Under the pieces are notes generated by a model that worked only from the letters and a program-made list of their open reading frames with translations, had not been told where the DNA came from and ran no database searches. A DNA stretch of 64,000 nucleotides, taken from the NCBI RefSeq assembly GCF_055900595.2, contig NZ_CM148325.1, one strand, 5' to 3'. Shown here in pieces: positions 9,725 to 33,724 of the stretch (the stretch's first letter is position 1; the number at the start of each line of letters is the position of its first letter). A program made the position numbers and the translations under genes.

Positions 9725-11944
9725 ATGAGCTCTATCTCCCTGATCCAACCGGATCGCGACCTGTTCTCCTGGCCGCAGTACTGGGCCGCCTGTTTTGGAC
9801 CGGCACCGTTTTTGCCGATGTCTCGTGAAGAGATGGATCAACTTGGCTGGGATAGCTGCGACATCATTTTGGTTACTGGCGACGCGTATGTCGATCACCC
9901 CAGCTTTGGGATGGCGATTTGCGGTCGTATGCTTGAAGCGCAGGGCTTTCGTGTCGGGATCATCGCCCAGCCAGACTGGAGCAGCAAAGACGACTTTATG
10001 CGTCTGGGCAAACCGAATCTGTTTTTCGGCGTTACCGCAGGCAACATGGACTCGATGATCAACCGTTACACTGCCGATCGCCGTTTGCGTCATGACGATG
10101 CCTACACGCCAGATAACGTCGCGGGTAAGCGCCCGGATCGCGCCACCCTGGTTTATACCCAACGCTGTAAAGAGGCGTGGAAAGATGTGCCGGTGATCCT
10201 CGGCGGTATTGAGGCTAGTTTGCGTCGTACCGCGCATTATGATTACTGGTCTGATACCGTGCGCCGTTCCGTGCTGGTGGATTCCAAAGCCGACATGCTG
10301 ATGTTCGGTAACGGTGAGCGTCCGCTGGTGGAAGTGGCGCATCGTCTGGCGATGGGTGAGCCGATTAGTGAAATCCGCGATGTGCGTAATACCGCGATTA
10401 TCGTAAAAGAGGCGTTGCCAGGCTGGAGCGGTGTGGATTCCACCCGTCTTGATACTCCTGGGAAAATCGACCCGATCCCGCATCCGTATGGTGAAGATTT
10501 GCCGTGCGCGGATAACAAACCGGTGGCCCCGAAAAAGCAGGAAGCGAAAGCCGTAACCGTGCAGCCACCGCGCCCGAAACCGTGGGAAAAAACTTACGTA
10601 TTGCTGCCTTCTTTCGAGAAAGTGAAGGGCGATAAAGTGCTGTACGCTCATGCTTCGCGTATTCTGCACCATGAAACCAACCCAGGCTGCGCGCGTGCGC
10701 TGATGCAAAAACATGGCGACCGCTATGTATGGATCAACCCGCCTGCCATCCCGCTTTCTACCGAAGAGATGGACAGCGTCTTTGCGCTGCCGTACAAGCG
10801 CGTGCCGCATCCGGCTTACGGTAATGCCCGAATTCCGGCTTACGAAATGATCCGTTTCTCTGTCAACATTATGCGCGGCTGCTTTGGCGGCTGCTCTTTC
10901 TGCTCTATTACCGAGCATGAAGGTCGCATTATTCAGAGCCGTTCGGAAGATTCGATCATCAACGAGATTGAAGCGATCCGCGACACCGTGCCAGGCTTTA
11001 CGGGCGTGATTTCCGATCTCGGTGGGCCAACTGCCAACATGTATATGTTGCGCTGCAAATCGCCGCGCGCCGAGCAGACTTGCCGCCGTTTATCGTGCGT
11101 TTACCCGGATATTTGTCCTCATATGGACACTAACCACGAACCGACGATCAACCTCTATCGCCGCGCGCGTGATCTGAAAGGCATTAAAAAGATCCTCATC
11201 GCTTCCGGCGTGCGTTATGACATCGCCGTGGAAGATCCGCGCTATATCAAAGAGCTGGCGACCCATCACGTTGGCGGTTATCTGAAGATTGCCCCGGAAC
11301 ATACCGAAGAAGGGCCGTTGTCGAAGATGATGAAGCCGGGCATGGGCAGCTATGACCGCTTTAAAGAGCTGTTCGATACCTACTCGAAACAGGCAGGTAA
11401 AGAGCAATATCTGATCCCGTATTTCATCTCGGCACACCCCGGTACGCGTGATGAAGATATGGTGAATCTGGCGCTGTGGCTGAAAAAGCATCGCTTCCGT
11501 CTCGACCAGGTACAGAACTTCTACCCGTCGCCGTTGGCTAACTCCACCACCATGTATTACACCGGGAAAAACCCGCTGGCGAAGATCGGTTACAAGAGTG
11601 AAGACGTCTTCGTACCGAAGGGCGACAAACAGCGTCGTTTGCATAAAGCGTTGTTGCGTTACCACGATCCGGCAAACTGGCCGTTAATCCGTCAGGCGCT
11701 GGAAGCGATGGGTAAAAAGCATCTGATTGGCAGCCGTCGTGATTGCTTAGTGCCTGCGCCAACCATTGAAGAGATGCGCGAAGCCCGCCGTCAGAACCGC
11801 AATACCCGTCCGGCGTTGACTAAACATACGCCGATGGCGACCCAGCGTCAGACGCCTGCTACGGCAAAAAAAGCGTCGTCTACGCCATCTCGCCCGGTGA
11901 ATGCTGGTGCAAAGAAACGGCCTAAAGCGGCGGTTGGTCGTTAA
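9725..11944 (+). CDS. ygiQ: Radical SAM protein YgiQ (UPF0313)
   Basis: 739-aa ORF with radical-SAM cysteine cluster (CFGGCSFC) and basic Lys/Arg-rich C-terminal tail. Confidence 0.9.
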
Positions 11945-14492: not shown

Positions 14493-14596
14493 ACGTTCCT
14501 CCTTTATATGAACTCACCGGAGCAGGCTCCGGTGAGGTGTTGTGAACTTAAGTCTGGACGAAATGCCCGAAAACGAAAGTTTGAGGCGTAAAAAGC

Positions 14597-15896: not shown

Positions 15897-16853
15897 ATGC
15901 TACAAAATTGCGCACAATCAAATTGCCGCATTATTCCTAAGAAATTACGCGATATGAAACGTGAAGAGATTTGCCGCTTGCTGGCGGGTAAAGTTAATAA
16001 ACTGAAAAATAAAGAAAATAGTTTGTCAGAGCTATTGCCCGATGTGCGTTTGTTGTATGGCGAGACGCCTTTCGCACGTACGCCGGTGATGTACGAGCCC
16101 GGCATCATAATTCTCTTTTCTGGGCATAAAATCGGTTATATCAATGAACGCGTGTTTCGTTATGATGCCAATGAATATCTGCTGCTGACGGTGCCGTTGC
16201 CGTTTGAGTGCGAAACTTATGCAACGTCAGAGGTACCGCTGGCAGGGTTGCGTCTCAATGTCGATGTTTTGCAGTTACAAGAGCTGTTGATGGACATTGG
16301 CGAAGATGAGCATTTTCGTCCGTCGATGGCAGCCAGCGGGATTAACTCTGCCACGTTATCAGAAGAGATTTTATGTGCGGCGGAGCGGTTACTCGACGTG
16401 ATGGAGCGACCGCTGGATGCGCGTATTCTCGGCAAACAGATCATCCGCGAAATTCTGTACTACGTGCTGACCGGACCTTGCGGTGGCGCGTTACTGGCGC
16501 TGGTCAGCCGTCAGACCCACTTCAGCCTGATTAGTCGTGTGCTGAAACGAATTGAGAATAAATACACCGAAAACCTGAGCGTCGAGCAACTGGCGGCAGA
16601 AGCCAACATGAGCGTATCGGCGTTCCACCATAATTTTAAGTCTGTCACTAGCACCTCGCCGTTGCAGTATTTGAAGAATTACCGTCTGCATAAGGCGCGG
16701 ATGATGATTATCCACGACGGCATGAAGGCCAGTGCAGCAGCGATGCGCGTCGGCTACGAAAGCGCGTCGCAATTTAGCCGTGAGTTTAAACGTTACTTTG
16801 GTGTGACACCGGGGGAGGATGCGGCAAGAATGCGGGCGATGCAGGGGAGTTAA
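15897..16853 (+). CDS. yqhC: AraC-family activator YqhC
   Basis: Start chosen at ATG 15897 (318 aa); C-terminal AraC HTH; divergent from yqhD-dkgA. Confidence 0.85.
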
Positions 16854-23104: not shown

Positions 23105-23257
23105 GACCTCTCCTTTCCACCATTCAATTTCGAAACAATGTTTCCAGTTTAGCGATTTACCAGGGGGGATCCCGTAGCATCGCTCACAGTGTGACGAAAA
23201 ACTGGGCAAAAACACGTGCTTATGCTTTGCTTAAAAAAACACCAATTAAGGAGTGCA

Positions 23258-23800
23258 ATGATGCCGCGTCTGACCGCTAAAGATTTCCCACAAGAGTTGC
23301 TGGATTACTACGACTATTACGCTCACGGGAAAATTTCGAAACGTGAGTTCCTCAACCTTGCGGCGAAGTATGCGGTGGGCGGGATGACGGCATTAGCGTT
23401 GTTTGATTTGCTCAAGCCAAATTATGCGCTGGCGACTCAGGTAGAGTTTACCGACCCGGAAATTGTTGCTGAGTACATCACGTATTCTTCGCCAAATGGT
23501 CACGGCGAGGTACGGGGTTATCTGGTGAAGCCCGCAAAGATGAGCGGCAAAACGCCAGCCGTGGTGGTGGTGCATGAGAATCGTGGACTGAATCCGTATA
23601 TCGAAGATGTGGCACGGCGAGTAGCGAAGGCGGGGTATATCGCCCTGGCACCTGACGGCTTAAGTTCCGTTGGAGGTTATCCGGGTAATGATGATAAAGG
23701 TCGTGAGCTGCAACAGCAGGTTGATCCAACCAAACTGATGAATGATTTCTTTGCCGCAATTGAGTTTATGCAACGCTATCCGCAAGCGACAGGCAAAGTG
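23258..23800 (+). pseudogene. yghX: yghX 5' segment (dienelactone-hydrolase-family protein) interrupted by IS10
   Basis: ORF from ATG 23258 (MMPRLTAKDFPQELLDYYDYY...) reads in frame into the IS10 end at 23801. Confidence 0.8.
23792..23800. repeat. IS10 target-site duplication, left copy (GGCAAAGTG)
   Basis: Identical 9-bp GGCAAAGTG directly flanks both IS10 ends (23792-23800 and 25130-25138). Confidence 0.9.
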
Positions 23801-25129
23801 CTGAGAGATCCCCTCATAATTTCCCCAAAACGTAACCATGTGTGAATAGATTTTGAGTAAGCAGGGTTGCAGCCACGAGTGAGTCTTCCCTTGTTATTGT
23901 GTAGCCAGAATGCCGCAAAACTTCCATGCCTAAGCGAACTGTTGAGAGTACGTTTCGATTTCTGACTGTGTTAGCCTGGAAGTGCTTGTCCCAACCTTGT
24001 TTCTGAGCATGAACGCCCGCAAGCCAACATGTTAGTTGAAGCATCAGGGCGATTAGCAGCATGATATCAAAACGCTCTGAGCTGCTCGTTCGGCTATGGC
24101 GTAGGCCTAGTCCGTAGGCAGGACTTTTCAAGTCTCGGAAGGTTTCTTCAATCTGCATTCGCTTCGAATAGATATTAACAAGTTGTTTGGGTGTTCGAAT
24201 TTCAACAGGTAAGTTAGTTGCTAGAATCCATGGCTCCTTTGCCGACGCTGAGTAGATTTTAGGTGACGGGTGGTGACAATGAGTCCGTGTCGAGCGCTGA
24301 TTTTTTCGGCCTTTAGAGCGAGATTTATACAATAGAATTTGGCATGAGATTGGATTGCTTTTAGTCAGCCTCTTATAGCCTAAAGTCTTTGAGTGACTAG
24401 ATGACATATCATGTAAGTTGCTGATAGGTTTCCAGTTTTCCGCTCCTAGGTCTGCATATTGTACTTTTCCTCTTACTCGACTTAACCAGTACCAACCCAG
24501 CTTCTCAACGGATTTATACCATGGCACTTTAAAGCCAGCATCACTGACAATGAGCGGTGTGGTGTTACTCGGTAGAATGCTCGCAAGGTCGGCTAGAAAT
24601 TGGTCATGAGCTTTCTTTGAACATTGCTCTGAAAGCGGGAACGCTTTCTCATAAAGAGTAACAGAACGACCGTGTAGTGCGACTGAAGCTCGCAATACCA
24701 TAAGCCGTTTTTGCTCACGGATATCAGACCAGTCAACAAGTACAATGGGCATCGTATTGCCCGAACAGATAAAGCTAGCATGCCAACGGTATACAGCGAG
24801 TCGCTCTTTGTGGAGGTGACGATTACCTAACAATCGGTCGATTCGTTTGATGTTATGTTTTGTTCTCGCTTTGGTTGGCAGGTTACGGCCAAGTTCGGTA
24901 AGAGTGAGAGTTTTACAGTCAAGTAAGGCGTGGCAAGCCAACGTTAAGCTGTTGAGTCGTTTTAAGTGTAATTCGGGGCAGAATTGGTAAAGAGAGTCGT
25001 GTAAAATATCGAGTTCGCACATTTTGTTGTCTGATTATTGATTTTTGGCGAAACCATTTGATCATATGACAAGATGTGTATCCACCTTAACTTAATGATT
25101 TTTACCAAAATCATTAGGGGATTCATCAG
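23801..25129 (-). mobile_element. IS10 (IS4 family), complete 1329-bp copy
   Basis: Ends CTGAGAGATCCCCTCATAATTTCCCC (inside end, 23801) and CTGATGAATCCCCTAATGATTTTGG (outside end, reverse at 25129); contains the 402-aa transposase; 9-bp direct repeats flank it. Confidence 0.95.
23814..25022 (-). CDS. IS10 transposase
   Basis: 402-aa ORF MCELDILHDSLYQFCPELHLKRLNSLTLACHALLDCKTLTLTELGRNLPTK... recognised as IS10/Tn10 transposase. Confidence 0.95.
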   Translation of the reverse strand: MCELDILHDSLYQFCPELHLKRLNSLTLACHALLDCKTLTLTELGRNLPTKARTKHNIKRIDRLLGNRHLHKERLAVYRWHASFICSGNTMPIVLVDWSDIREQKRLMVLRASVALHGRSVTLYEKAFPLSEQCSKKAHDQFLADLASILPSNTTPLIVSDAGFKVPWYKSVEKLGWYWLSRVRGKVQYADLGAENWKPISNLHDMSSSHSKTLGYKRLTKSNPISCQILLYKSRSKGRKNQRSTRTHCHHPSPKIYSASAKEPWILATNLPVEIRTPKQLVNIYSKRMQIEETFRDLKSPAYGLGLRHSRTSSSERFDIMLLIALMLQLTCWLAGVHAQKQGWDKHFQANTVRNRNVLSTVRLGMEVLRHSGYTITREDSLVAATLLTQNLFTHGYVLGKL

Positions 25130-25138
25130 GGCAAAGTG
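25130..25138. repeat. IS10 target-site duplication, right copy (GGCAAAGTG)
   Basis: Direct repeat of 23792-23800. Confidence 0.9.
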
Positions 25139-25486
25139 GGTATTACCGGATTTTGCTATGGCGGTGGTGTATCGAACGCGGCGGCTGTCGCGTATCCGGA
25201 ACTGGCCTGCGCGGTGCCGTTTTATGGTCGTCAGGCACCCACTGCCGATGTGGCGAAGATTGAAGCGCCTTTACTGCTCCACTACGCGGAACTGGATACC
25301 CGAATCAACGAGGGCTGGCCCGCTTACGAGGCGGCGTTGAAAGCCAATAATAAGGTCTATGAGGCGTATATCTATCCGGGGGTTAATCACGGATTCCATA
25401 ATGATTCCACGCCCCGTTATGACAAATCTGCCGCCGATCTTGCCTGGCAAAGGACGCTGAAATGGTTCGATAAATATCTCTCCTGA
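25130..25486 (+). pseudogene. yghX: yghX 3' segment (dienelactone hydrolase C-terminal part)
   Basis: Continues the yghX frame after the IS10/TSD (...GKV|[15 protein letters not shown]...). The IS plus one TSD copy is 1338 bp, which is divisible by 3, so the two segments are in phase. Confidence 0.78.
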
Positions 25487-25604
25487 TAGGTTTATCTCTT
25501 ACGGGATTACGTCTTAAACAAGCATGAAAAAATAGCGTGCGCAAAAGTCGTTCTTTGCCTAAAATATCGCTATATATGACAATATATAGCGAATGAGGTG
25601 AACG

Positions 25605-25892
25605 ATGAATAACCATTTTGGTAAAGGCTTAATGGCGGGATTAAAAGCAACGCATGCCGACAGTGCGGTTAATGTGACAAAATACTGTGCCGGTTATAAA
25701 CGCGGTTTTGTATTAGGCTACTCACACCGGATGTACGAAAAGACCGGAGATCGCCAGCTTAGCGCCTGGGAAGCGGGGATTCTGACGCGCCGCTATGGAC
25801 TGGATAAAGAGATGGTAATGGATTTCTTTCGTGAGAATAATTCCTGTTCTACGTTGCGCTTTTTTATGGCCGGTTATCGCCTCGAAAATTGA
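25605..25892 (+). CDS. yghW: DUF2623 protein YghW
   Basis: 95-aa [27 protein letters not shown]... immediately upstream of hybO. Confidence 0.75.
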
Positions 25893-26080
25893 TCAAACAT
25901 ACGTATTATCTTGCTTTAATTAATTACACTAATGCTTATTCCCTTCGTTTTAGTGCCCCGCCGCAGTATCATGATATCGATAACCATAATAAATGTGTGG
26001 TAAATGGCGCATCGATCGCATTATTGATTTTGCGATTGAGGCAAAATATATGCCAGGTCTTCGCAACGGAATAACTATAA

Positions 26081-27199
26081 ATGACTGGAGATAACACCCT
26101 CATCCATTCTCACGGCATTAACCGTCGTGATTTCATGAAGCTTTGTGCAGCATTAGCCGCCACCATGGGGTTAAGTAGCAAAGCCGCTGCAGAGATGGCC
26201 GAATCGGTTACTAACCCGCAGCGTCCGCCAGTTATCTGGATTGGCGCGCAGGAGTGCACCGGTTGTACGGAATCTCTGCTTCGTGCAACGCATCCAACGG
26301 TAGAAAACCTCATGCTGGAGACGATCTCTCTGGAGTATCACGAAGTGCTTTCCGCCGCCTTCGGTCATCAGGTCGAAGAGAACAAACATAACGCTCTTGA
26401 GAAGTACAAAGGGCAGTATGTGTTAGTGGTAGATGGTTCCATCCCATTAAAAGATAATGGTATTTATTGCATGGTTGCTGGTGAGCCGATTGTGGATCAC
26501 ATCCGCAAAGCGGCGGAAGGCGCAGCAGCCATTATCGCTATCGGTTCCTGCTCTGCGTGGGGCGGTGTTGCTGCAGCTGGAGTTAACCCAACTGGCGCTG
26601 TCAGCCTGCAAGAAGTTCTGCCGGGCAAAACCGTTATCAACATTCCGGGCTGCCCACCGAACCCGCACAACTTCCTCGCGACCGTTGCGCACATCATCAC
26701 TTACGGCAAACCGCCGAAACTGGATGACAAAAACCGTCCGACTTTCGCCTATGGCCGTCTGATTCACGAACACTGCGAACGCCGCCCGCACTTCGATGCT
26801 GGTCGTTTTGCCAAAGAGTTCGGTGATGAAGGCCACCGCGAAGGCTGGTGCCTGTACCACCTCGGCTGTAAAGGGCCAGAAACTTACGGCAACTGCTCAA
26901 CGCTGCAATTCTGCGATGTTGGTGGTGTGTGGCCGGTGGCGATTGGTCACCCGTGCTATGGCTGTAACGAAGAAGGTATCGGCTTCCATAAAGGCATCCA
27001 TCAGCTTGCCAACGTCGAAAACCAGACTCCGCGTTCGCAGAAACCGGATGTTAACGCTAAAGAGGGCGGCAACGTCTCTGCGGGCGCTATCGGTTTGCTC
27101 GGCGGTGTGGTTGGGCTGGTTGCCGGTGTCAGCGTGATGGCGGTGCGTGAACTGGGTCGTCAGCAAAAGAAAGATAACGCTGACTCACGGGGAGAATAA
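26081..27199 (+). CDS. hybO: Hydrogenase-2 small subunit HybO
   Basis: 372-aa ORF with Tat signal ([13 protein letters not shown]), [NiFe]-hydrogenase small-subunit Cys clusters and C-terminal TM anchor. Confidence 0.95.
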
Positions 27200-27201
27200 C
27201 C

Positions 27202-28188
27202 GTGAACAGACGTAATTTTATTAAAGCAGCCTCCTGCGGGGCATTGCTGACGGGCGCGTTGCCGTCTGTCAGTCATGCGGCTGCTGAAAACCGCCCGCCA
27301 ATTCCGGGATCGCTGGGGATGTTGTATGACTCGACGCTGTGCGTAGGCTGCCAGGCTTGCGTCACTAAGTGTCAGGATATCAACTTCCCTGAACGTAACC
27401 CACAAGGGGAACAGACCTGGTCGAATAACGACAAACTGTCGCCGTACACCAATAACATTATCCAGGTGTGGACCAGCGGCACGGGAGTCAACAAAGACCA
27501 GGAAGAGAACGGCTATGCGTACATTAAGAAACAGTGTATGCACTGCGTCGATCCGAACTGTGTCTCCGTGTGCCCGGTCTCCGCGCTGAAAAAAGATCCG
27601 AAAACCGGCATTGTCCATTACGACAAAGATGTGTGCACCGGCTGCCGTTACTGCATGGTCGCCTGCCCGTACAACGTGCCGAAGTACGACTACAACAACC
27701 CGTTTGGTGCGCTGCATAAGTGCGAGCTGTGCAACCAGAAAGGTGTGGAACGTCTTGATAAAGGCGGTCTGCCTGGCTGCGTAGAAGTGTGCCCGGCGGG
27801 CGCGGTGATTTTTGGTACGCGTGAAGAGCTGATGGCGGAGGCGAAAAAACGTCTGGCGCTGAAGCCTGGCAGCGAATACCACTATCCGCGTCAGACGCTG
27901 AAATCTGGCGACACTTACCTGCATACGGTGCCGAAATATTATCCGCATCTGTACGGCGAGAAAGAGGGCGGCGGTACTCAGGTACTGGTACTGACGGGTG
28001 TGCCTTATGAAAATCTCGACCTGCCGAAACTGGACGATCTTTCTACTGGTGCGCGTTCCGAACATGTTCAACACACCCTGTATAAAGGCATGATGCTACC
28101 ACTGGCTGTGCTGGCGGGCTTAACCGTGCTGGTTCGTCGCAACACCAAAAACGACCATCACGACGGAGGAGACGATCATGAGTCATGA
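27202..28188 (+). CDS. hybA: Hydrogenase-2 ferredoxin-type subunit HybA
   Basis: GTG start; Tat-like signal RRNFIKAAS; multiple 4Fe-4S CxxCxxCxxxCP motifs. Confidence 0.93.
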
Positions 28189-29356
28189 TCCACAACCGCT
28201 GGGCGGCAAAATCATCAGTAAACCGGTCATGATTTTTGGACCGTTAATCGTCATCTGTATGCTCCTGATTGTGAAGCGTCTGGTGTTCGGTCTGGGCTCT
28301 GTCTCTGACCTGAACGGCGGCTTCCCGTGGGGCGTGTGGATCGCGTTTGACCTGTTGATCGGCACCGGCTTCGCCTGTGGCGGCTGGGCGCTGGCGTGGG
28401 CGGTATACGTCTTTAACCGTGGGCAATACCATCCGCTGGTACGTCCGGCACTGTTGGCAAGTCTGTTTGGTTACTCACTGGGTGGCTTGTCGATCACTAT
28501 CGACGTGGGGCGCTACTGGAACCTGCCGTACTTCTACATTCCGGGTCACTTCAACGTGAACTCGGTACTGTTCGAGACGGCGGTCTGTATGACCATCTAC
28601 ATCGGCGTGATGGCACTGGAGTTTGCTCCGGCACTGTTTGAACGTCTGGGCTGGAAAGTGTCGCTACAGCGTCTGAACAAGGTGATGTTCTTCATCATCG
28701 CGCTCGGCGCGCTGCTGCCAACTATGCACCAGTCTTCAATGGGGTCGCTGATGATCTCGGCGGGCTACAAGGTGCATCCGCTGTGGCAAAGCTATGAAAT
28801 GTTGCCGCTGTTCTCGCTGTTGACGGCGTTCATCATGGGCTTCTCGATTGTCATCTTTGAAGGTTCGCTGGTGCAGGCGGGTCTGCGTGGCAACGGTCCG
28901 GATGAAAAGAGCCTGTTCGTCAAACTGACCAACACCATCAGTGTGTTGCTGGCGATTTTCATCGTGTTGCGCTTTGGCGAGCTGATCTATCGCGACAAGC
29001 TGTCGTTAGCGTTTGCCGGTGACTTCTACTCCGTGATGTTCTGGATTGAAGTCCTGCTGATGCTCTTCCCGCTGGTTGTTCTGCGTGTGGCGAAGCTGCG
29101 TAATGATTCCCGCATGCTGTTCCTGTCAGCATTGAGCGCACTGTTAGGTTGTGCAACCTGGCGTCTGACCTATTCGCTGGTGGCATTCAACCCGGGCGGC
29201 GGTTACGCCTACTTCCCGACCTGGGAAGAACTGTTGATTTCTATTGGTTTTGTGGCTATTGAGATTTGCGCTTACATCGTACTCATTCGTCTACTGCCGA
29301 TACTTCCTCCTTTAAAACAAAACGATCATAATCGTCATGAGGCGAGCAAAGCATGA
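28178..29356 (+). CDS. hybB: Hydrogenase-2 membrane subunit HybB (NrfD/PsrC-like)
   Basis: 392-aa polytopic membrane protein; overlaps hybA by 11 nt and hybC by 4 nt. Confidence 0.95.
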
Positions 29357-31056
29357 GCCAGAGAATTACTATTGATCCGGTAACCCGAATTGAAGGGCAT
29401 TTACGCATCGATTGCGAAATCGAAAATGGCGTCGTTTCGAAAGCATGGGCTTCCGGTACCATGTGGCGCGGCATGGAAGAGATCGTGAAAAACCGCGATC
29501 CGCGCGATGCATGGATGATTGTGCAACGTATCTGTGGCGTATGTACTACCACTCACGCGCTGTCTTCTGTCCGTGTGGCAGAGAGCGCGCTGAATATCGA
29601 CGTTCCGGTTAACGCGCAATACATCCGTAACATCATTCTGGCTGCGCACACCACGCATGACCATATCGTTCATTTCTATCAGCTTTCAGCGCTGGACTGG
29701 GTGGACATCACTTCTGCACTGCAAGCTGACCCAACCAAAGCCTCGGAAATGCTGAAAGGCGTTTCGACCTGGCATCTGAACAGCCCGGAAGAGTTCACTA
29801 AAGTTCAGAACAAGATCAAAGATCTGGTTGCCAGCGGTCAGTTGGGTATTTTCGCTAATGGCTACTGGGGGCACCCGGCAATGAAACTGCCGCCGGAAGT
29901 GAACCTGATTGCGGTAGCGCACTACCTGCAGGCGCTGGAGTGCCAGCGTGACGCTAACCGCGTCGTGGCGCTGCTGGGCGGTAAAACGCCGCACATTCAG
30001 AACCTGGCGGTAGGTGGTGTCGCGAACCCGATCAACCTCGACGGTCTGGGTGTGCTGAACCTTGAGCGCCTGATGTACATCAAGTCTTTCATCGACAAAC
30101 TGAGCGACTTTGTTGAGCAGGTTTACAAGGTTGATACCGCGGTTATCGCCGCGTTCTATCCGGAATGGCTGACGCGCGGCAAAGGTGCGGTGAACTACCT
30201 GAGCGTGCCGGAATTCCCGACCGACAGCAAAAACGGCAGCTTCCTGTTCCCGGGCGGCTACATTGAGAATGCGGATCTGTCCTCGTATCGCCCGATCACT
30301 TCCCACTCCGATGAATACCTGATCAAAGGCATTCAGGAAAGCGCGAAGCACTCCTGGTATAAAGACGAAGCGCCGCAGGCACCGTGGGAAGGTACCACCA
30401 TTCCGGCTTATGATGGTTGGTCTGACGACGGGAAATATTCCTGGGTGAAATCACCGACTTTCTACGGCAAAACGGTAGAAGTGGGTCCGCTGGCTAATAT
30501 GCTGGTGAAACTGGCGGCAGGTCGCGAATCTACCCAGAATAAACTGAATGAAATCGTTGCGATTTATCAGAAACTGACTGGCAACACGCTGGAAGTGGCG
30601 CAGCTGCACTCCACGCTGGGCCGTATTATTGGTCGTACCGTTCACTGCTGCGAATTGCAGGATATCCTGCAAAACCAATACAGTGCACTGATCACCAATA
30701 TCGGCAAAGGCGATCACACCACCTTCGTGAAACCGAACATTCCGGCAACGGGTGAGTTCAAAGGTGTTGGCTTCCTCGAAGCGCCGCGCGGTATGCTCTC
30801 TCACTGGATGGTTATTAAAGACGGTATCATCAGCAACTACCAGGCGGTTGTTCCATCAACCTGGAACTCTGGCCCGCGTAACTTCAATGATGACGTCGGT
30901 CCTTACGAGCAGTCGCTGGTGGGTACGCCGGTTGCCGATCCGAATAAACCGCTGGAAGTGGTGCGTACCATTCACTCCTTCGACCCGTGCATGGCCTGTG
31001 CGGTACACGTAGTGGATGCCGACGGCAACGAAGTGGTTTCAGTGAAGGTTCTGTAA
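29353..31056 (+). CDS. hybC: Hydrogenase-2 large subunit HybC
   Basis: 567-aa ORF with N-terminal RICGVC and C-terminal DPCMACAVH Ni-Fe ligand motifs. Confidence 0.97.
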   Translation: MSQRITIDPVTRIEGHLRIDCEIENGVVSKAWASGTMWRGMEEIVKNRDPRDAWMIVQRICGVCTTTHALSSVRVAESALNIDVPVNAQYIRNIILAAHTTHDHIVHFYQLSALDWVDITSALQADPTKASEMLKGVSTWHLNSPEEFTKVQNKIKDLVASGQLGIFANGYWGHPAMKLPPEVNLIAVAHYLQALECQRDANRVVALLGGKTPHIQNLAVGGVANPINLDGLGVLNLERLMYIKSFIDKLSDFVEQVYKVDTAVIAAFYPEWLTRGKGAVNYLSVPEFPTDSKNGSFLFPGGYIENADLSSYRPITSHSDEYLIKGIQESAKHSWYKDEAPQAPWEGTTIPAYDGWSDDGKYSWVKSPTFYGKTVEVGPLANMLVKLAAGRESTQNKLNEIVAIYQKLTGNTLEVAQLHSTLGRIIGRTVHCCELQDILQNQYSALITNIGKGDHTTFVKPNIPATGEFKGVGFLEAPRGMLSHWMVIKDGIISNYQAVVPSTWNSGPRNFNDDVGPYEQSLVGTPVADPNKPLEVVRTIHSFDPCMACAVHVVDADGNEVVSVKVL

Positions 31057-31550
31057 TGCGTATTTTAGTCTTAGGGGTTGGCAATATTTTGCTGACCGAT
31101 GAAGCCATCGGTGTGCGGATTGTCGAAGCGTTAGAGCAACGATATATTCTGCCAGATTATGTTGAGATCCTCGATGGCGGCACGGCGGGAATGGAGCTGC
31201 TTGGCGACATGGCAAATCGTGATCATCTGATCATTGCGGATGCCATTGTGTCGAAGAAGAGCGCGCCGGGAACGATGATGATCCTGCGGGATGAAGAAGT
31301 TCCGGCGTTGTTTACCAACAAAATCTCTCCGCATCAGCTTGGCCTGGCCGACGTATTGTCGGCCCTGCGCTTCACCGGTGAGTTTCCGAAAAAGCTGACC
31401 CTGGTCGGCGTGATCCCGGAATCGCTGGAGCCACACATCGGCTTAACGCCGACGGTTGAAGCAATGATTGAACCTGCGCTTGAGCATGTTCTGGCTGCGC
31501 TGCGCGAATCAGGCGTGGAAGCCATCCCACGGGAGGCGATTCATGACTGA
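31056..31550 (+). CDS. hybD: Hydrogenase-2 maturation endopeptidase HybD
   Basis: ATG overlaps the hybC stop (TAATG); MRILVLGVGNILLTDEAIG... 164 aa. Confidence 0.9.
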   Translation: MRILVLGVGNILLTDEAIGVRIVEALEQRYILPDYVEILDGGTAGMELLGDMANRDHLIIADAIVSKKSAPGTMMILRDEEVPALFTNKISPHQLGLADVLSALRFTGEFPKKLTLVGVIPESLEPHIGLTPTVEAMIEPALEHVLAALRESGVEAIPREAIHD

Positions 31551-32031
31551 AGAGATAGCAGGTTTCCAGACCTCCCCGAAGGCGCAAGTACAGGCAGCGT
31601 TTGAAGAAATTGCCCGGCGTTCGATGCACGATCTCTCTTTTCTGCATCCTTCAATGCCGGTGTATGTTTCTGACTTTACGCTGTTCGAAGGTCAGTGGAC
31701 GGGGTGTGTGATCACCCCGTGGATGCTGAGTGCGGTTATCTTCCCCGGCCCGGATCAACTCTGGCCACTGCGCAAAGTGAGTGAAAAAATTGGTCTGCAA
31801 CTGCCGTATGGCACCATGACCTTTACCGTTGGCGAACTGGACGGTGTTTCGCAATACCTCTCCTGCTCGCTGATGTCGCCGCTTTCGCACAGCATGTCGA
31901 TTGAAGAGGGCCAACGCCTGACGGATGACTGCGCACGAATGATCCTTTCGCTGCCAGTCACGAATCCGGATGTACCACACGCAGGGCGTCGCGCCCTGCT
32001 GTTTGGCCGCAGGAGTGGCGAAAATGCATGA
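31543..32031 (+). CDS. hybE: Hydrogenase-2 operon chaperone HybE
   Basis: ATG at 31543 (MTEEIAGFQTSPKAQ..., 162 aa), overlaps the hybD stop. Confidence 0.85.
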   Translation: MTEEIAGFQTSPKAQVQAAFEEIARRSMHDLSFLHPSMPVYVSDFTLFEGQWTGCVITPWMLSAVIFPGPDQLWPLRKVSEKIGLQLPYGTMTFTVGELDGVSQYLSCSLMSPLSHSMSIEEGQRLTDDCARMILSLPVTNPDVPHAGRRALLFGRRSGENA

Positions 32032-32365
32032 GTTGTCGCTTTGCCAGAGCGCCGTTGAAATTATCCAACGGCAGGCGGAGCAGCACGATGTTAAGCGCGT
32101 CACCGCCGTGTGGCTGGAAATTGGCGCGCTCTCCTGCGTTGAGGAGAGCGCCGTCCGTTTTAGTTTTGAAATTGTCTGCCACGGAACGGTGGCGCAAGGG
32201 TGCGATTTACATATCGTCTATAAACCCGCCCAGGCCTGGTGCTGGGATTGCAGCCAGGTGGTGGAGATTCATCAGCACGATGCGCAGTGTCCGCTCTGTC
32301 ATGGCGAGCGGTTGCGTGTCGATACCGGCGATTCGCTGATCGTCAAAAGTATTGAAGTTGAATAA
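32024..32365 (+). CDS. hybF: Hydrogenase nickel-insertion protein HybF (HypA paralogue)
   Basis: MHELSLCQSAVEII... with CxxC...CPxC zinc motif, 113 aa. Confidence 0.9.
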   Translation: MHELSLCQSAVEIIQRQAEQHDVKRVTAVWLEIGALSCVEESAVRFSFEIVCHGTVAQGCDLHIVYKPAQAWCWDCSQVVEIHQHDAQCPLCHGERLRVDTGDSLIVKSIEVE

Positions 32366-32377
32366 CCGGAGTTAACA

Positions 32378-32626
32378 ATGTGTATTGGCGTTCCAGGCCA
32401 GGTGCTGGCTGTCGGTGAAGATATTCACCAGCTTGCGCAGGTTGAAGTATGTGGTATCAAGCGCGACGTGAATATCGCCCTGATTTGTGAAGGTAACCCT
32501 GCCGATCTGCTGGGCCAGTGGGTGCTGGTACACGTCGGATTTGCCATGAGCATCATCGACGAAGATGAAGCCAAAGCCACATTAGACGCGCTGCGCCAAA
32601 TGGATTACGACATTACCAGCGCGTGA
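32378..32626 (+). CDS. hybG: Hydrogenase maturation factor HybG (HypC family)
   Basis: 82-aa ORF starting MCIGVPGQV (HypC N-terminal Cys2 motif). Confidence 0.9.
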
Positions 32627-32635
32627 TGATTAGCT

Positions 32636-32822
32636 TTCGTAGGCCTGATAAGACGCGACAGCGTCGCATCAGGCATTGTGCACGATTGCCGGATGCGGCG
32701 TGAACGCCTTATCCGGCCTACCGTTCGGGTGCCGATTGTAGGCCTGATAAGACGCGGCAGCGTCGCATCAGGCATTATGCACGATTGCCGGATGCGGCGT
32801 GAACGCCTTTTCCGGCCTACCT
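32636..32822. repeat. Tandem REP/BIME elements between convergent hybG and yghU
   Basis: Two near-identical ~85-bp units (GTAGGCCTGATAAGACGCG.CAGCGTCGCATCAGGCATT.TGCACGATTGCCGGATGCGGCGTGAACGCCTT.TCCGGCCTAC). Confidence 0.7.
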
Positions 32823-32857
32823 CGGCCTGGATGGCTTGCTGCGACGAACACCAACCC

Positions 32858-33724
32858 TTACCCCTGACGCTTATCTTCCGTATTCGTCTCGAAATCACTG
32901 GCGTCATGGCGTTCATGCAACTGCTCGTTCAGCGGTCCGTTGGTGCGGTTAACAATACGCCCACGCTTCACCGCCGGACGTTCGCCCACTTCTTTCGCCC
33001 AGCGTTGCACATGTTTATAACTTCCCGCATCCAGAAACTCTGCGGCATCATACACGCCGCCGAGCACCACGTTGCCAAACCACGGCCAAATCGCCATATC
33101 CGCAATGGTGTACTCATCGCCCGCAACAAACTTATGCTGCGCCAGTTGCTTATCCAGCACGTCGAGCAGGCGCTTGGCTTCCATAGTAAAGCGGTTGATG
33201 GCGTACTCAATTTTCACCGGCGCGTAATGGTAAAAGTGACCAAAACCACCGCCGAGGAACGGCGCGGCACCCTGTAACCAGAACAGCCAGTTCAGCGTTT
33301 CAGTCCGTTTTGCCAGATCCTGCGGCAGGAAGTAGCCAAATTTCTCCGCCAGATAAAGCAGAATCGATCCAGACTCAAACACGCGGATCGGCGGAGTATG
33401 GGTATGGTCGCGCAGCGCCGGGATCTTCGAGTTTGGGTTCACTTCGACAAAGCCGCTGGAGAATTGATCGCCATCGCCAATACGAATCAGCCAGGCGTCG
33501 TACTCTGCACCAGTAACGCCCAGCGCCAGCAGCTCCTCAAGCATAATCGTTACTTTCTGACCGTTCGGCGTTCCCAGTGAATAGAGTTGCAGCGGATGTT
33601 TGCCCACCGGCAGCGTTTTTTCATGCGTCGGACCAGAAACCGGGCGATTGATATTGGCGAACGCGCCGCCAGCGGATTTATCCCACGTCCAGACTTTCGC
33701 GGGCTGATAAGTATTGTCTGTCAT
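32858..33724 (-). CDS. yghU: Nu-class glutathione S-transferase-like protein YghU
   Basis: Start at ATG 33724 (MTDNTYQPAKVWTWDKSAGG..., 288 aa). Confidence 0.9.
   Translation of the reverse strand: MTDNTYQPAKVWTWDKSAGGAFANINRPVSGPTHEKTLPVGKHPLQLYSLGTPNGQKVTIMLEELLALGVTGAEYDAWLIRIGDGDQFSSGFVEVNPNSKIPALRDHTHTPPIRVFESGSILLYLAEKFGYFLPQDLAKRTETLNWLFWLQGAAPFLGGGFGHFYHYAPVKIEYAINRFTMEAKRLLDVLDKQLAQHKFVAGDEYTIADMAIWPWFGNVVLGGVYDAAEFLDAGSYKHVQRWAKEVGERPAVKRGRIVNRTNGPLNEQLHERHDASDFETNTEDKRQG

Follow-up and report, generated by a model that had tools for sequence, protein, structure and literature searches.

A single complete IS10 interrupts an otherwise intact yghX next to yghW and the hyb operon

The window, by which we mean the whole 64-kb stretch of E. 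coli DNA analyzed here, contains yghX, which extends from an ATG at 23258 (PGAP places the start at 23261) to a stop at 25486 and is interrupted by an IS10 element whose transposase is encoded on the minus strand (Table 1). On one side lies gpr, which starts at ~23105 on the minus strand, and on the other lie yghW, the first intact gene downstream of the element's outside end, and the hyb operon, with hybO starting at 26081, 952 bp from that end. In a base-level script check, the element measured exactly 1329 bp, beginning with CTGAGAGATCCCC at the inside end and finishing with GGGGATTCATCAG at the outside end. No other IS10 copy lies in the window, where a single inside end and a single outside end were found.

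Table 1. Features of the interrupted yghX locus, with positions counted from the first letter of the window
Feature	Position	Strand	Remarks
yghX 5′ fragment	23258..23800	+	codons 1–181, ends ...ATGKV; frame continues through 14 codons of the IS (LRDPLIISPKRNHV) and stops at 23843–23845
left TSD	23792..23800	.	GGCAAAGTG (script); boundary letters ...CGACA GGCAAAGTG / CTGAGAGATCCCCTCATAATTTCCCC... at 23792–23800/23801
IS10	23801..25129	-	inside end 23801, outside end 25129
inside-end terminal repeat	23801..23823	.	CTGAGAGATCCCCTCATAATTTC; dam site GATC at 23807–23810; same as both R100 arms over IS nt 1301–1329
transposase gene	23814..25022	-	402 aa, uninterrupted (ORF list, Pfam, NCBIfam)
pIII/OUTIIp segment	23900..24130	-	IS10 nt 1000–1230; location and direction from PMC11481808; putatively active
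probable pOUT −10 hexamer	25002..25007	+	TAAAAT, 7 nt ahead of where RNA-OUT starts; hexamer assignment read from sequence
RNA-OUT antisense RNA	25015..25084	+	IS10 nt 115 to 46; Rfam RF00240
pIN −10 region and RNA-IN start	25049..25063	-	RNA-IN +1 = IS nt 81 = 25049; GATC at 25060–25063 (nt 67–70)
outside-end terminal repeat	25107..25129	.	CTGATGAATCCCCTAATGATTTT read inward; IS nt 1–82 = IS10-Right
right TSD	25130..25138	.	GGCAAAGTG (script); boundary letters ...AATCATTAGGGGATTCATCAG / GGCAAAGTG GGTATTACC... at 25129/25130–25138
junction 31-mers of the insertion			ACAGGCAAAGTG/CTGAGAGATCCCC and GGATTCATCAG/GGCAAAGTGGG
yghX 3′ fragment	25139..25486	+	codons 182–296; GFCYGG nucleophile motif follows 5 codons past the break
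yghW (DUF2623)	25605..25892	+	nearest intact gene beyond the outside end, at a distance of 476 bp

A direct repeat flanking the element, already remarked on in an earlier note on this DNA, is a perfect target-site duplication (TSD): the two copies of GGCAAAGTG match at 9/9 positions, for which the chance probability is ~4e-6. The duplicated sequence agrees with 4/6 core positions of the IS10 target consensus NGCTNAGCN and fits the relaxed form NRCNNNGYN in full (PMC4574204). Within yghX there are 19 relaxed IS10 target sites and no perfect ones. The site preference of IS10 is strong, as 19 of 21 independent otsB insertions occurred at one position (PMC2744996).

When the element and one copy of the TSD are removed, so that 23258–23800 is joined to 25139–25486, the result is an 891-nt gene encoding 296 amino acids with no stop. 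Over all 891 nt the reconstructed yghX is 100% identical to intact genes annotated as 'YghX family hydrolase' in 9 complete genomes, and its product matches NCBIfam NF041440 at 586.3 bits (cutoff 460) over positions 1–292 of 292, as well as dienelactone hydrolase (DLH; Pfam PF01738, E = 3e-48) and Pfam YqhI-like. These matches bear out the view that yghX was otherwise intact before the insertion. The earlier note's statement that K-12 yghX is a frameshift pseudogene also proved correct, as the MG1655 gene, which is annotated as a pseudogene, carries 2-bp and 1-bp frameshifting deletions relative to the reconstructed gene; its IS10 target site is intact. Among 5,426 complete E. coli genomes, yghX is uninterrupted in 5,416.

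Since insertion at codons 179–181 splits the α/β-hydrolase fold 5 codons ahead of its GFCYGG nucleophile motif, the interrupted gene is a null allele of yghX. To judge from that fold, neither fragment would be able to form an active hydrolase. The 3′ fragment can be called as a 116-aa ORF that starts at a GTG at 25136. The earlier note had described the insertion as in-frame, with the two halves of yghX staying in phase across it. The arithmetic stands, as the element plus one TSD is 1338 bp and both 1329 and 9 are multiples of 3, but the phase has no bearing on the outcome, since translation in the yghX frame encounters 27 stop codons within the element, the first of them at 23843. We therefore do not regard 'in-frame' as biologically meaningful here.

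The only long ORF of the element is the transposase gene, which reads without interruption from 25022 to 23814 and has its ATG at nt 108 from the outside end, as in IS10. The encoded protein matches Pfam DDE_Tnp_1 (PF01609; E = 1.5e-24) and the NCBIfam IS4-family transposase model NF033591 (402 bits). Matches to the element occur in 3,173 plasmid records, with 99.7% identity to one Tn10 arm on R100, and we compared both R100 arms with the window copy base by base. Identity is 99.17% to the tetD-side arm, IS10-Right, and 99.70% to the other arm, which adjoins a gltS-like gene and which we take to be IS10-Left from the Tn10 map; its protein also differs from IS10-Right at the C terminus. From IS10-Right the window copy differs by 11 substitutions (nt 83, 107, 410, 425, 903, 1249, 1268, 1271, 1272, 1281, and 1300), and from the gltS-side arm by 4 differences, all at the outside end (nt 24, 25, 27, and 47). 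Having no private changes relative to the two arms, it is their exact midpoint.

IS databases treat copies as isoforms when their nucleotide identity to the reference, here IS10R, is 95% or more, and the values of 99.17% and 99.70% lie well within this limit. In its length and ends, 402-aa DDE transposase, nucleotide identity, 9-bp TSD, RNA-OUT, and dam sites, the element has the properties of IS10. Both of its terminal repeats, which form the imperfect inverted repeats of IS10 (CTGATGAATCCCCTAATGATTTT at the outside end and CTGAGAGATCCCCTCATAATTT at the inside end), are identical to the R100 IS10-Right ends. The claim of a complete IS10 with an intact transposase is thus upheld, but alignment with the reference shows that the element is not canonical IS10-Right, given its 11 nucleotide differences. 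All 1329 bp recur with 100% identity in E. coli 55989 (230607–231935), in which the copy is flanked by its own 9-bp TSD, GGCTTAATC, and 1,967 of the 5,426 complete E. coli genomes contain IS10-like sequence. Judged by these comparisons, the element is an ordinary wild chromosomal variant of IS10, neither textbook IS10-Right nor decayed. PGAP labels wild chromosomal IS10 copies 'ISVsa5 family'.

Is the transposase of this variant likely to function? The protein is WP_001352368.1, which is also encoded by R100 IS10-Left, 55989, APEC O2-211, and O177:H21, and which differs from that of IS10R by four amino acid changes (V266I, L388S, A392T, and A398V, given as IS10R to window). Among the copies compared, the IS10-Right coding changes were seen only in Tn10. 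The IS10-Left transposase is described as inactive or weak in the Tn10 literature (PMC11148124). Strains with WP_001352368.1 have multiple matching places, 9 in 55989, 16 in APEC O2-211, and 37 in O177:H21, and such multi-copy wild strains argue for a protein that would work in its natural context. Because the same protein has so many copies in wild strains, the element may be able to transpose again.

The sequences that control IS10 are also in place. RNA-OUT scores 97.3 bits with RF00240 (gathering score 41) over model positions 1–70 of 70, and its coordinates fit the published start and the published end, as RNA-OUT terminates at nt 47 (PMC5006887). The stem-loop is kept despite the substitutions at nt 83 and 107, with a predicted energy of −21.3 kcal/mol versus −23.9 kcal/mol for IS10R. 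The element contains only two GATC sites, at nt 67–70, over pIN, and at nt 1320–1323, in the inside end; the dam site overlapping pIN and the nt 81 coordinate of the RNA-IN start follow PMC5006887. Since a simple sigma-70 scan flagged neither pOUT nor pIN, the promoter calls were made from the agreement with IS10-Right together with the Rfam hit to RNA-OUT. Specifically, IS10 nt 108–409, which cover the pOUT promoter, its probable −10 hexamer included, are the same as in IS10-Right, as are nt 904–1248, which hold pIII and OUTIIp, two outward promoters that PMC11481808 assigns to the inside end.

Consistent with the earlier note, the outside end at 25129, where the plus strand encodes RNA-OUT, is directed toward the 3′ yghX fragment, yghW, and hybO. 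Read-out from pOUT into adjacent DNA can activate neighboring genes (PMC2744996), and the majority of transcripts from pOUT finish as RNA-OUT, which is 69 nt long (PMC5006887). Between 25130 and 26200, the plus strand showed no site resembling an intrinsic terminator. From the layout of the locus, outward pOUT transcription into the yghX 3′ remnant, yghW, and hyb is plausible. Studies of Tn10 polarity have established that untranslated RNA favors Rho-dependent termination, and since the 476 bp from the outside end to yghW would be mostly untranslated, such termination would be favored here. Any effect of pOUT on hyb is probably small, because hybO lies ~950 bp away and hyb keeps its own promoter region. 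In the other direction, pIII and OUTIIp would send weak transcripts leftward, antisense via the yghX 5′ fragment toward gpr. These gpr-facing promoters had been overlooked in the earlier note.

If the insertion disrupted an intact gene, how long ago did this occur? With a 401-bp probe, the left junction was found in 0 of 5,426 complete E. coli genomes. E200086 (Mali), one of the nearest relatives with an empty site, differs from the window by 1 mismatch and 1 indel over the upstream 7.8 kb and by 2 mismatches over the first 5.1 kb downstream. We considered whether the IS is linked to the change in identity relative to E200086 and rejected this, since the mosaic boundary is at ~30237 in hybC, 5 kb from the IS. 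For the downstream 7.9 kb of the window, the best identity among complete RefSeq E. coli genomes was 98.7%. Given that the TSD copies are identical, that near-identical relatives have an empty site, and that the junction is absent from the complete genomes, the insertion is, on these sequence comparisons, recent and clone-specific, in agreement with the relatively recent transposition proposed earlier.

Exact-protein look-ups of the 116-aa 3′ ORF were carried out in public assemblies (Logan). In SRR27886137, one contig opens with 30 bp of the IS10 outside end, crosses into yghX at the junction seen here, and matches the window at 100% identity over 7,569 bp, which marks this run as evidently the same clone. 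Short-read contigs extend only ~30 bp into the IS. The outside-end junction also occurs in SRR35371900, but there the flanks match the window at only 97.5% identity, the first difference lying 16 bp from the junction, and are 100% identical to chicken strain 104; the left junction, ...GGCAAAGTG/CTGAGAGATCC..., was recovered on a separate contig of the same run. By its flanking sequence, SRR35371900 evidently represents an independent IS10 insertion at the identical site and in the identical orientation in another lineage. One further 3′-ORF contig was set aside as an artefact, as it begins with Tn5 mosaic-end/Nextera sequence. Look-ups of the full-length yghX-IS fusion ORF, made with 3 start choices and also with the strain-104 allele, gave no exact-protein match. 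Among the end-truncated yghX-IS forms, only the 190-aa strain-104 form found a match; neither the 189-aa strain-104 form nor the window allele with the MPRL start did so.

Other lesions in yghX were also found. In SRR30938118 an IS1 end lies 12 bp upstream of the IS10 site, and in DRR389171 a CAA codon is changed to the nonsense codon TAA. Together with the frameshifts of K-12, these show that yghX has been inactivated repeatedly by unrelated lesions, which fits a dispensable gene.

Our findings are very probably explained by a single complete IS10 of the wild chromosomal variant that inserted into an intact yghX in a recent event confined to one clone. IS10 would have transposed by its usual cut-and-paste route into codons 179–181 of yghX, duplicating the 9-bp target GGCAAAGTG. 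Its sequence shows that the element retains both ends, the transposase, pIN/RNA-IN, pOUT/RNA-OUT, and both dam sites, which are the parts required for further movement and self-regulation. Loss of YghX would be neutral or nearly so. Transcripts from pOUT would mostly end inside the element as the 69–70 nt RNA-OUT, and a minority may read into the yghX remnant and yghW.

Could the insertion instead have been selected? One possibility is that IS10 lands recurrently at GGCAAAGTG in yghX and that its presence there in this orientation is favored, either because pOUT alters the expression of yghW and/or the hyb hydrogenase-2 genes or because loss of YghX is beneficial in some gut niche. Such selection would account for the recurrence in SRR35371900, where both junctions of another, independent IS10 were recovered with site and orientation unchanged. 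There is also a precedent for activation by pOUT in the otsB up-mutants, 19/21 of which had IS10 at one site (PMC2744996), and the plus strand up to hybO showed nothing resembling a terminator. We nevertheless consider selection improbable. Recurrence needs no selection, because the target preference of IS10 is strong and the read archive searched is very large, with very numerous E. coli runs, and agreement in orientation in two of two cases is a 50% event. Moreover, the insertion is absent from all of the complete genomes, yghX is also broken by lesions that bring no promoter (frameshifts, the nonsense codon, and IS1), and hybO is distant from the outside end and has its own promoter region. 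If selection had been at work, the locus would offer a modest example from natural E. coli of regulatory evolution driven in parallel by an IS.

It is less probable still, indeed very unlikely, that the insertion is a laboratory or assembly artefact, in which IS10 from a Tn10-derived cloning host entered the clone or was misplaced by the assembler. IS10 from laboratory hosts is a known contaminant of cloned DNA (PMC4574204), and K-12 cloning strains carry IS10R and IS10L copies (PMC11148124). However, the window copy is neither Tn10 arm, as it combines an IS10R-type outside end with an IS10L-type body, as in 55989 and APEC O2-211. The junctions are exact to the base, with a perfect TSD, and SRR27886137, which is a separate short-read assembly, breaks at the same junction with flanks that are 100% identical. 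The host background is also not K-12, as yghX is without the K-12 frameshifts. Finally, although IS10 is most familiar from Tn10, in which it forms the arms, the chance that the element is not a solo IS but belongs to a composite transposon, either Tn10 or a unit resembling it, is negligible, since the 64-kb window contains one inside end and one outside end only, with no second arm and no tet genes, the 9-bp duplication directly borders a single 1329-bp unit, and both sides are the normal chromosomal neighbors, gpr and yghW-hyb.

Returning to the solo insertion, we note that it is a textbook case of already known biology, routine in nature and of no new kind. For annotation, the locus should be described as yghX::IS10, a pseudogene in two pieces, together with a mobile element that includes RNA-OUT. 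The junction, absent from 5,426 complete genomes, is a clone-specific marker usable for strain tracking. Two minor points may concern IS specialists. One is the same-site hit in another lineage; the other is that the chromosomal IS10 of the 3 wild strains checked encodes the protein that the Tn10 literature labels 'defective' IS10-Left.

How does this insertion compare with known IS10 systems? A parallel for its orientation is otsBA activation in rpoS-null evolution lines (PMC2744996), in which the outside end with pOUT likewise points at downstream genes. In those cases the IS lies within a few tens of bp of the start of the activated gene, whereas the distance in the present case is 476 bp to yghW and 952 bp to hybO.

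With IS10-Right of Tn10 (R100/NR1; IS4 family), the window copy shares its 1329-bp length, its ends (nt 1–82 and 1301–1329), and identical pOUT and pIII/OUTIIp regions, as well as a 402-aa DDE transposase, a 9-bp TSD, RNA-IN/RNA-OUT control, and two dam sites. It differs from IS10-Right by G83C, at RNA-IN +3 and in the RNA-OUT loop, by G107A, the base preceding the AUG, which leaves a G-U instead of a G-C pair in the RNA-OUT stem, and by the other 9 substitutions, which fall in the coding region and result in 4 amino acid changes. With IS10-Left of Tn10 (R100), it shares nt 48–1329 and the protein WP_001352368.1, but it is without the 4 private outside-end changes of that arm (nt 24, 25, 27, and 47). 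The copy in E. coli 55989 is the same over 100% of the 1329 bp, and only the insertion site differs.

The site at which IS10 splits yghX in the window is also occupied by IS10 in a second E. coli lineage, with the same target-site duplication and the same orientation, in Logan contigs of the public run SRR35371900. This second insertion lies in flanking DNA that shares 97.5% identity with the window and matches the E. coli chicken strain 104 at 100%. The yghX IS10 of SRR35371900 is an independent recurrence. Other lesions of the gene were found in two further public runs and in K-12 (see table), and yghX is repeatedly lost in E. coli.

Positions of features in the window and in fetched comparison sequences (L-numbers)
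Feature	Window position	Comparison sequence	Source
IS10 junctions in yghX	23792-23830 and 25102-25138	L006 1-40 and L010 3520-3570	SRR35371900
IS1 insertion in yghX, 12 bp 5' to the IS10 site		L007 1-50	SRR30938118
CAA-to-TAA nonsense codon in yghX		L004 ~9970-9980	DRR389171
2-bp and 1-bp deletions in yghX		L003 3357-4192	K-12
Near-perfect 26-bp palindrome, 11-bp arms, TCGCTATATAT GACA ATATATAGCGA	25567-25592		
naRNA4 (REP-type), two tandem copies, past the hyb operon	32642-32817		Rfam
sRNA C0719	58061-58282		Rfam
sRNA ES173	14531-14594		Rfam

The N terminus of YghX (residues 1-57, window 23258-23430) contains a twin-arginine-like motif of the KR type (SKREFLNLAAKYAVGGMTALALF); this motif hints that the protein is exported by the Tat pathway. 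Because the Pfam family 'YqhI-like' matches YghX residues 2-37, the K-12 small protein YqhI would be the orphaned N terminus of the frameshifted YghX. To the right of yghX, the palindrome lies directly upstream of the yghW ribosome-binding site and may be an operator.

Strain E200086, in which the yghX site is empty, is near-identical to the window except for an abrupt shift in identity at window 30237: only 2 mismatches fall in 25130-30236, followed by 82 in the next 2.4 kb (30237-32590, hybC to hybG). No complete E. coli genome was found to match 25139-33000 at >98.7%. The shift looks like a recombination mosaic boundary within hybC that has no connection to IS10. E200086 carries IS1A between yqhD and yqhC (L002 11931-12698), where the window has none (15955-15963), and a poly-G run in the gpr-yghX divergent promoter region (window ~23140-23150) differs between the two by 1 bp in length. 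Reciprocal private IS insertions distinguish the window from E200086.

When the window IS10 (23801-25129) was compared with L001, L011, L012, and L013, it had no private changes relative to the two arms of Tn10, IS10-Left and IS10-Right. The nine coding-region changes of IS10-Right were confined, among the copies compared, to Tn10. WP_001352368.1, the protein of the 'defective' IS10-Left of Tn10, is encoded by wild chromosomal IS10 copies of 55989, APEC O2-211, and O177:H21.
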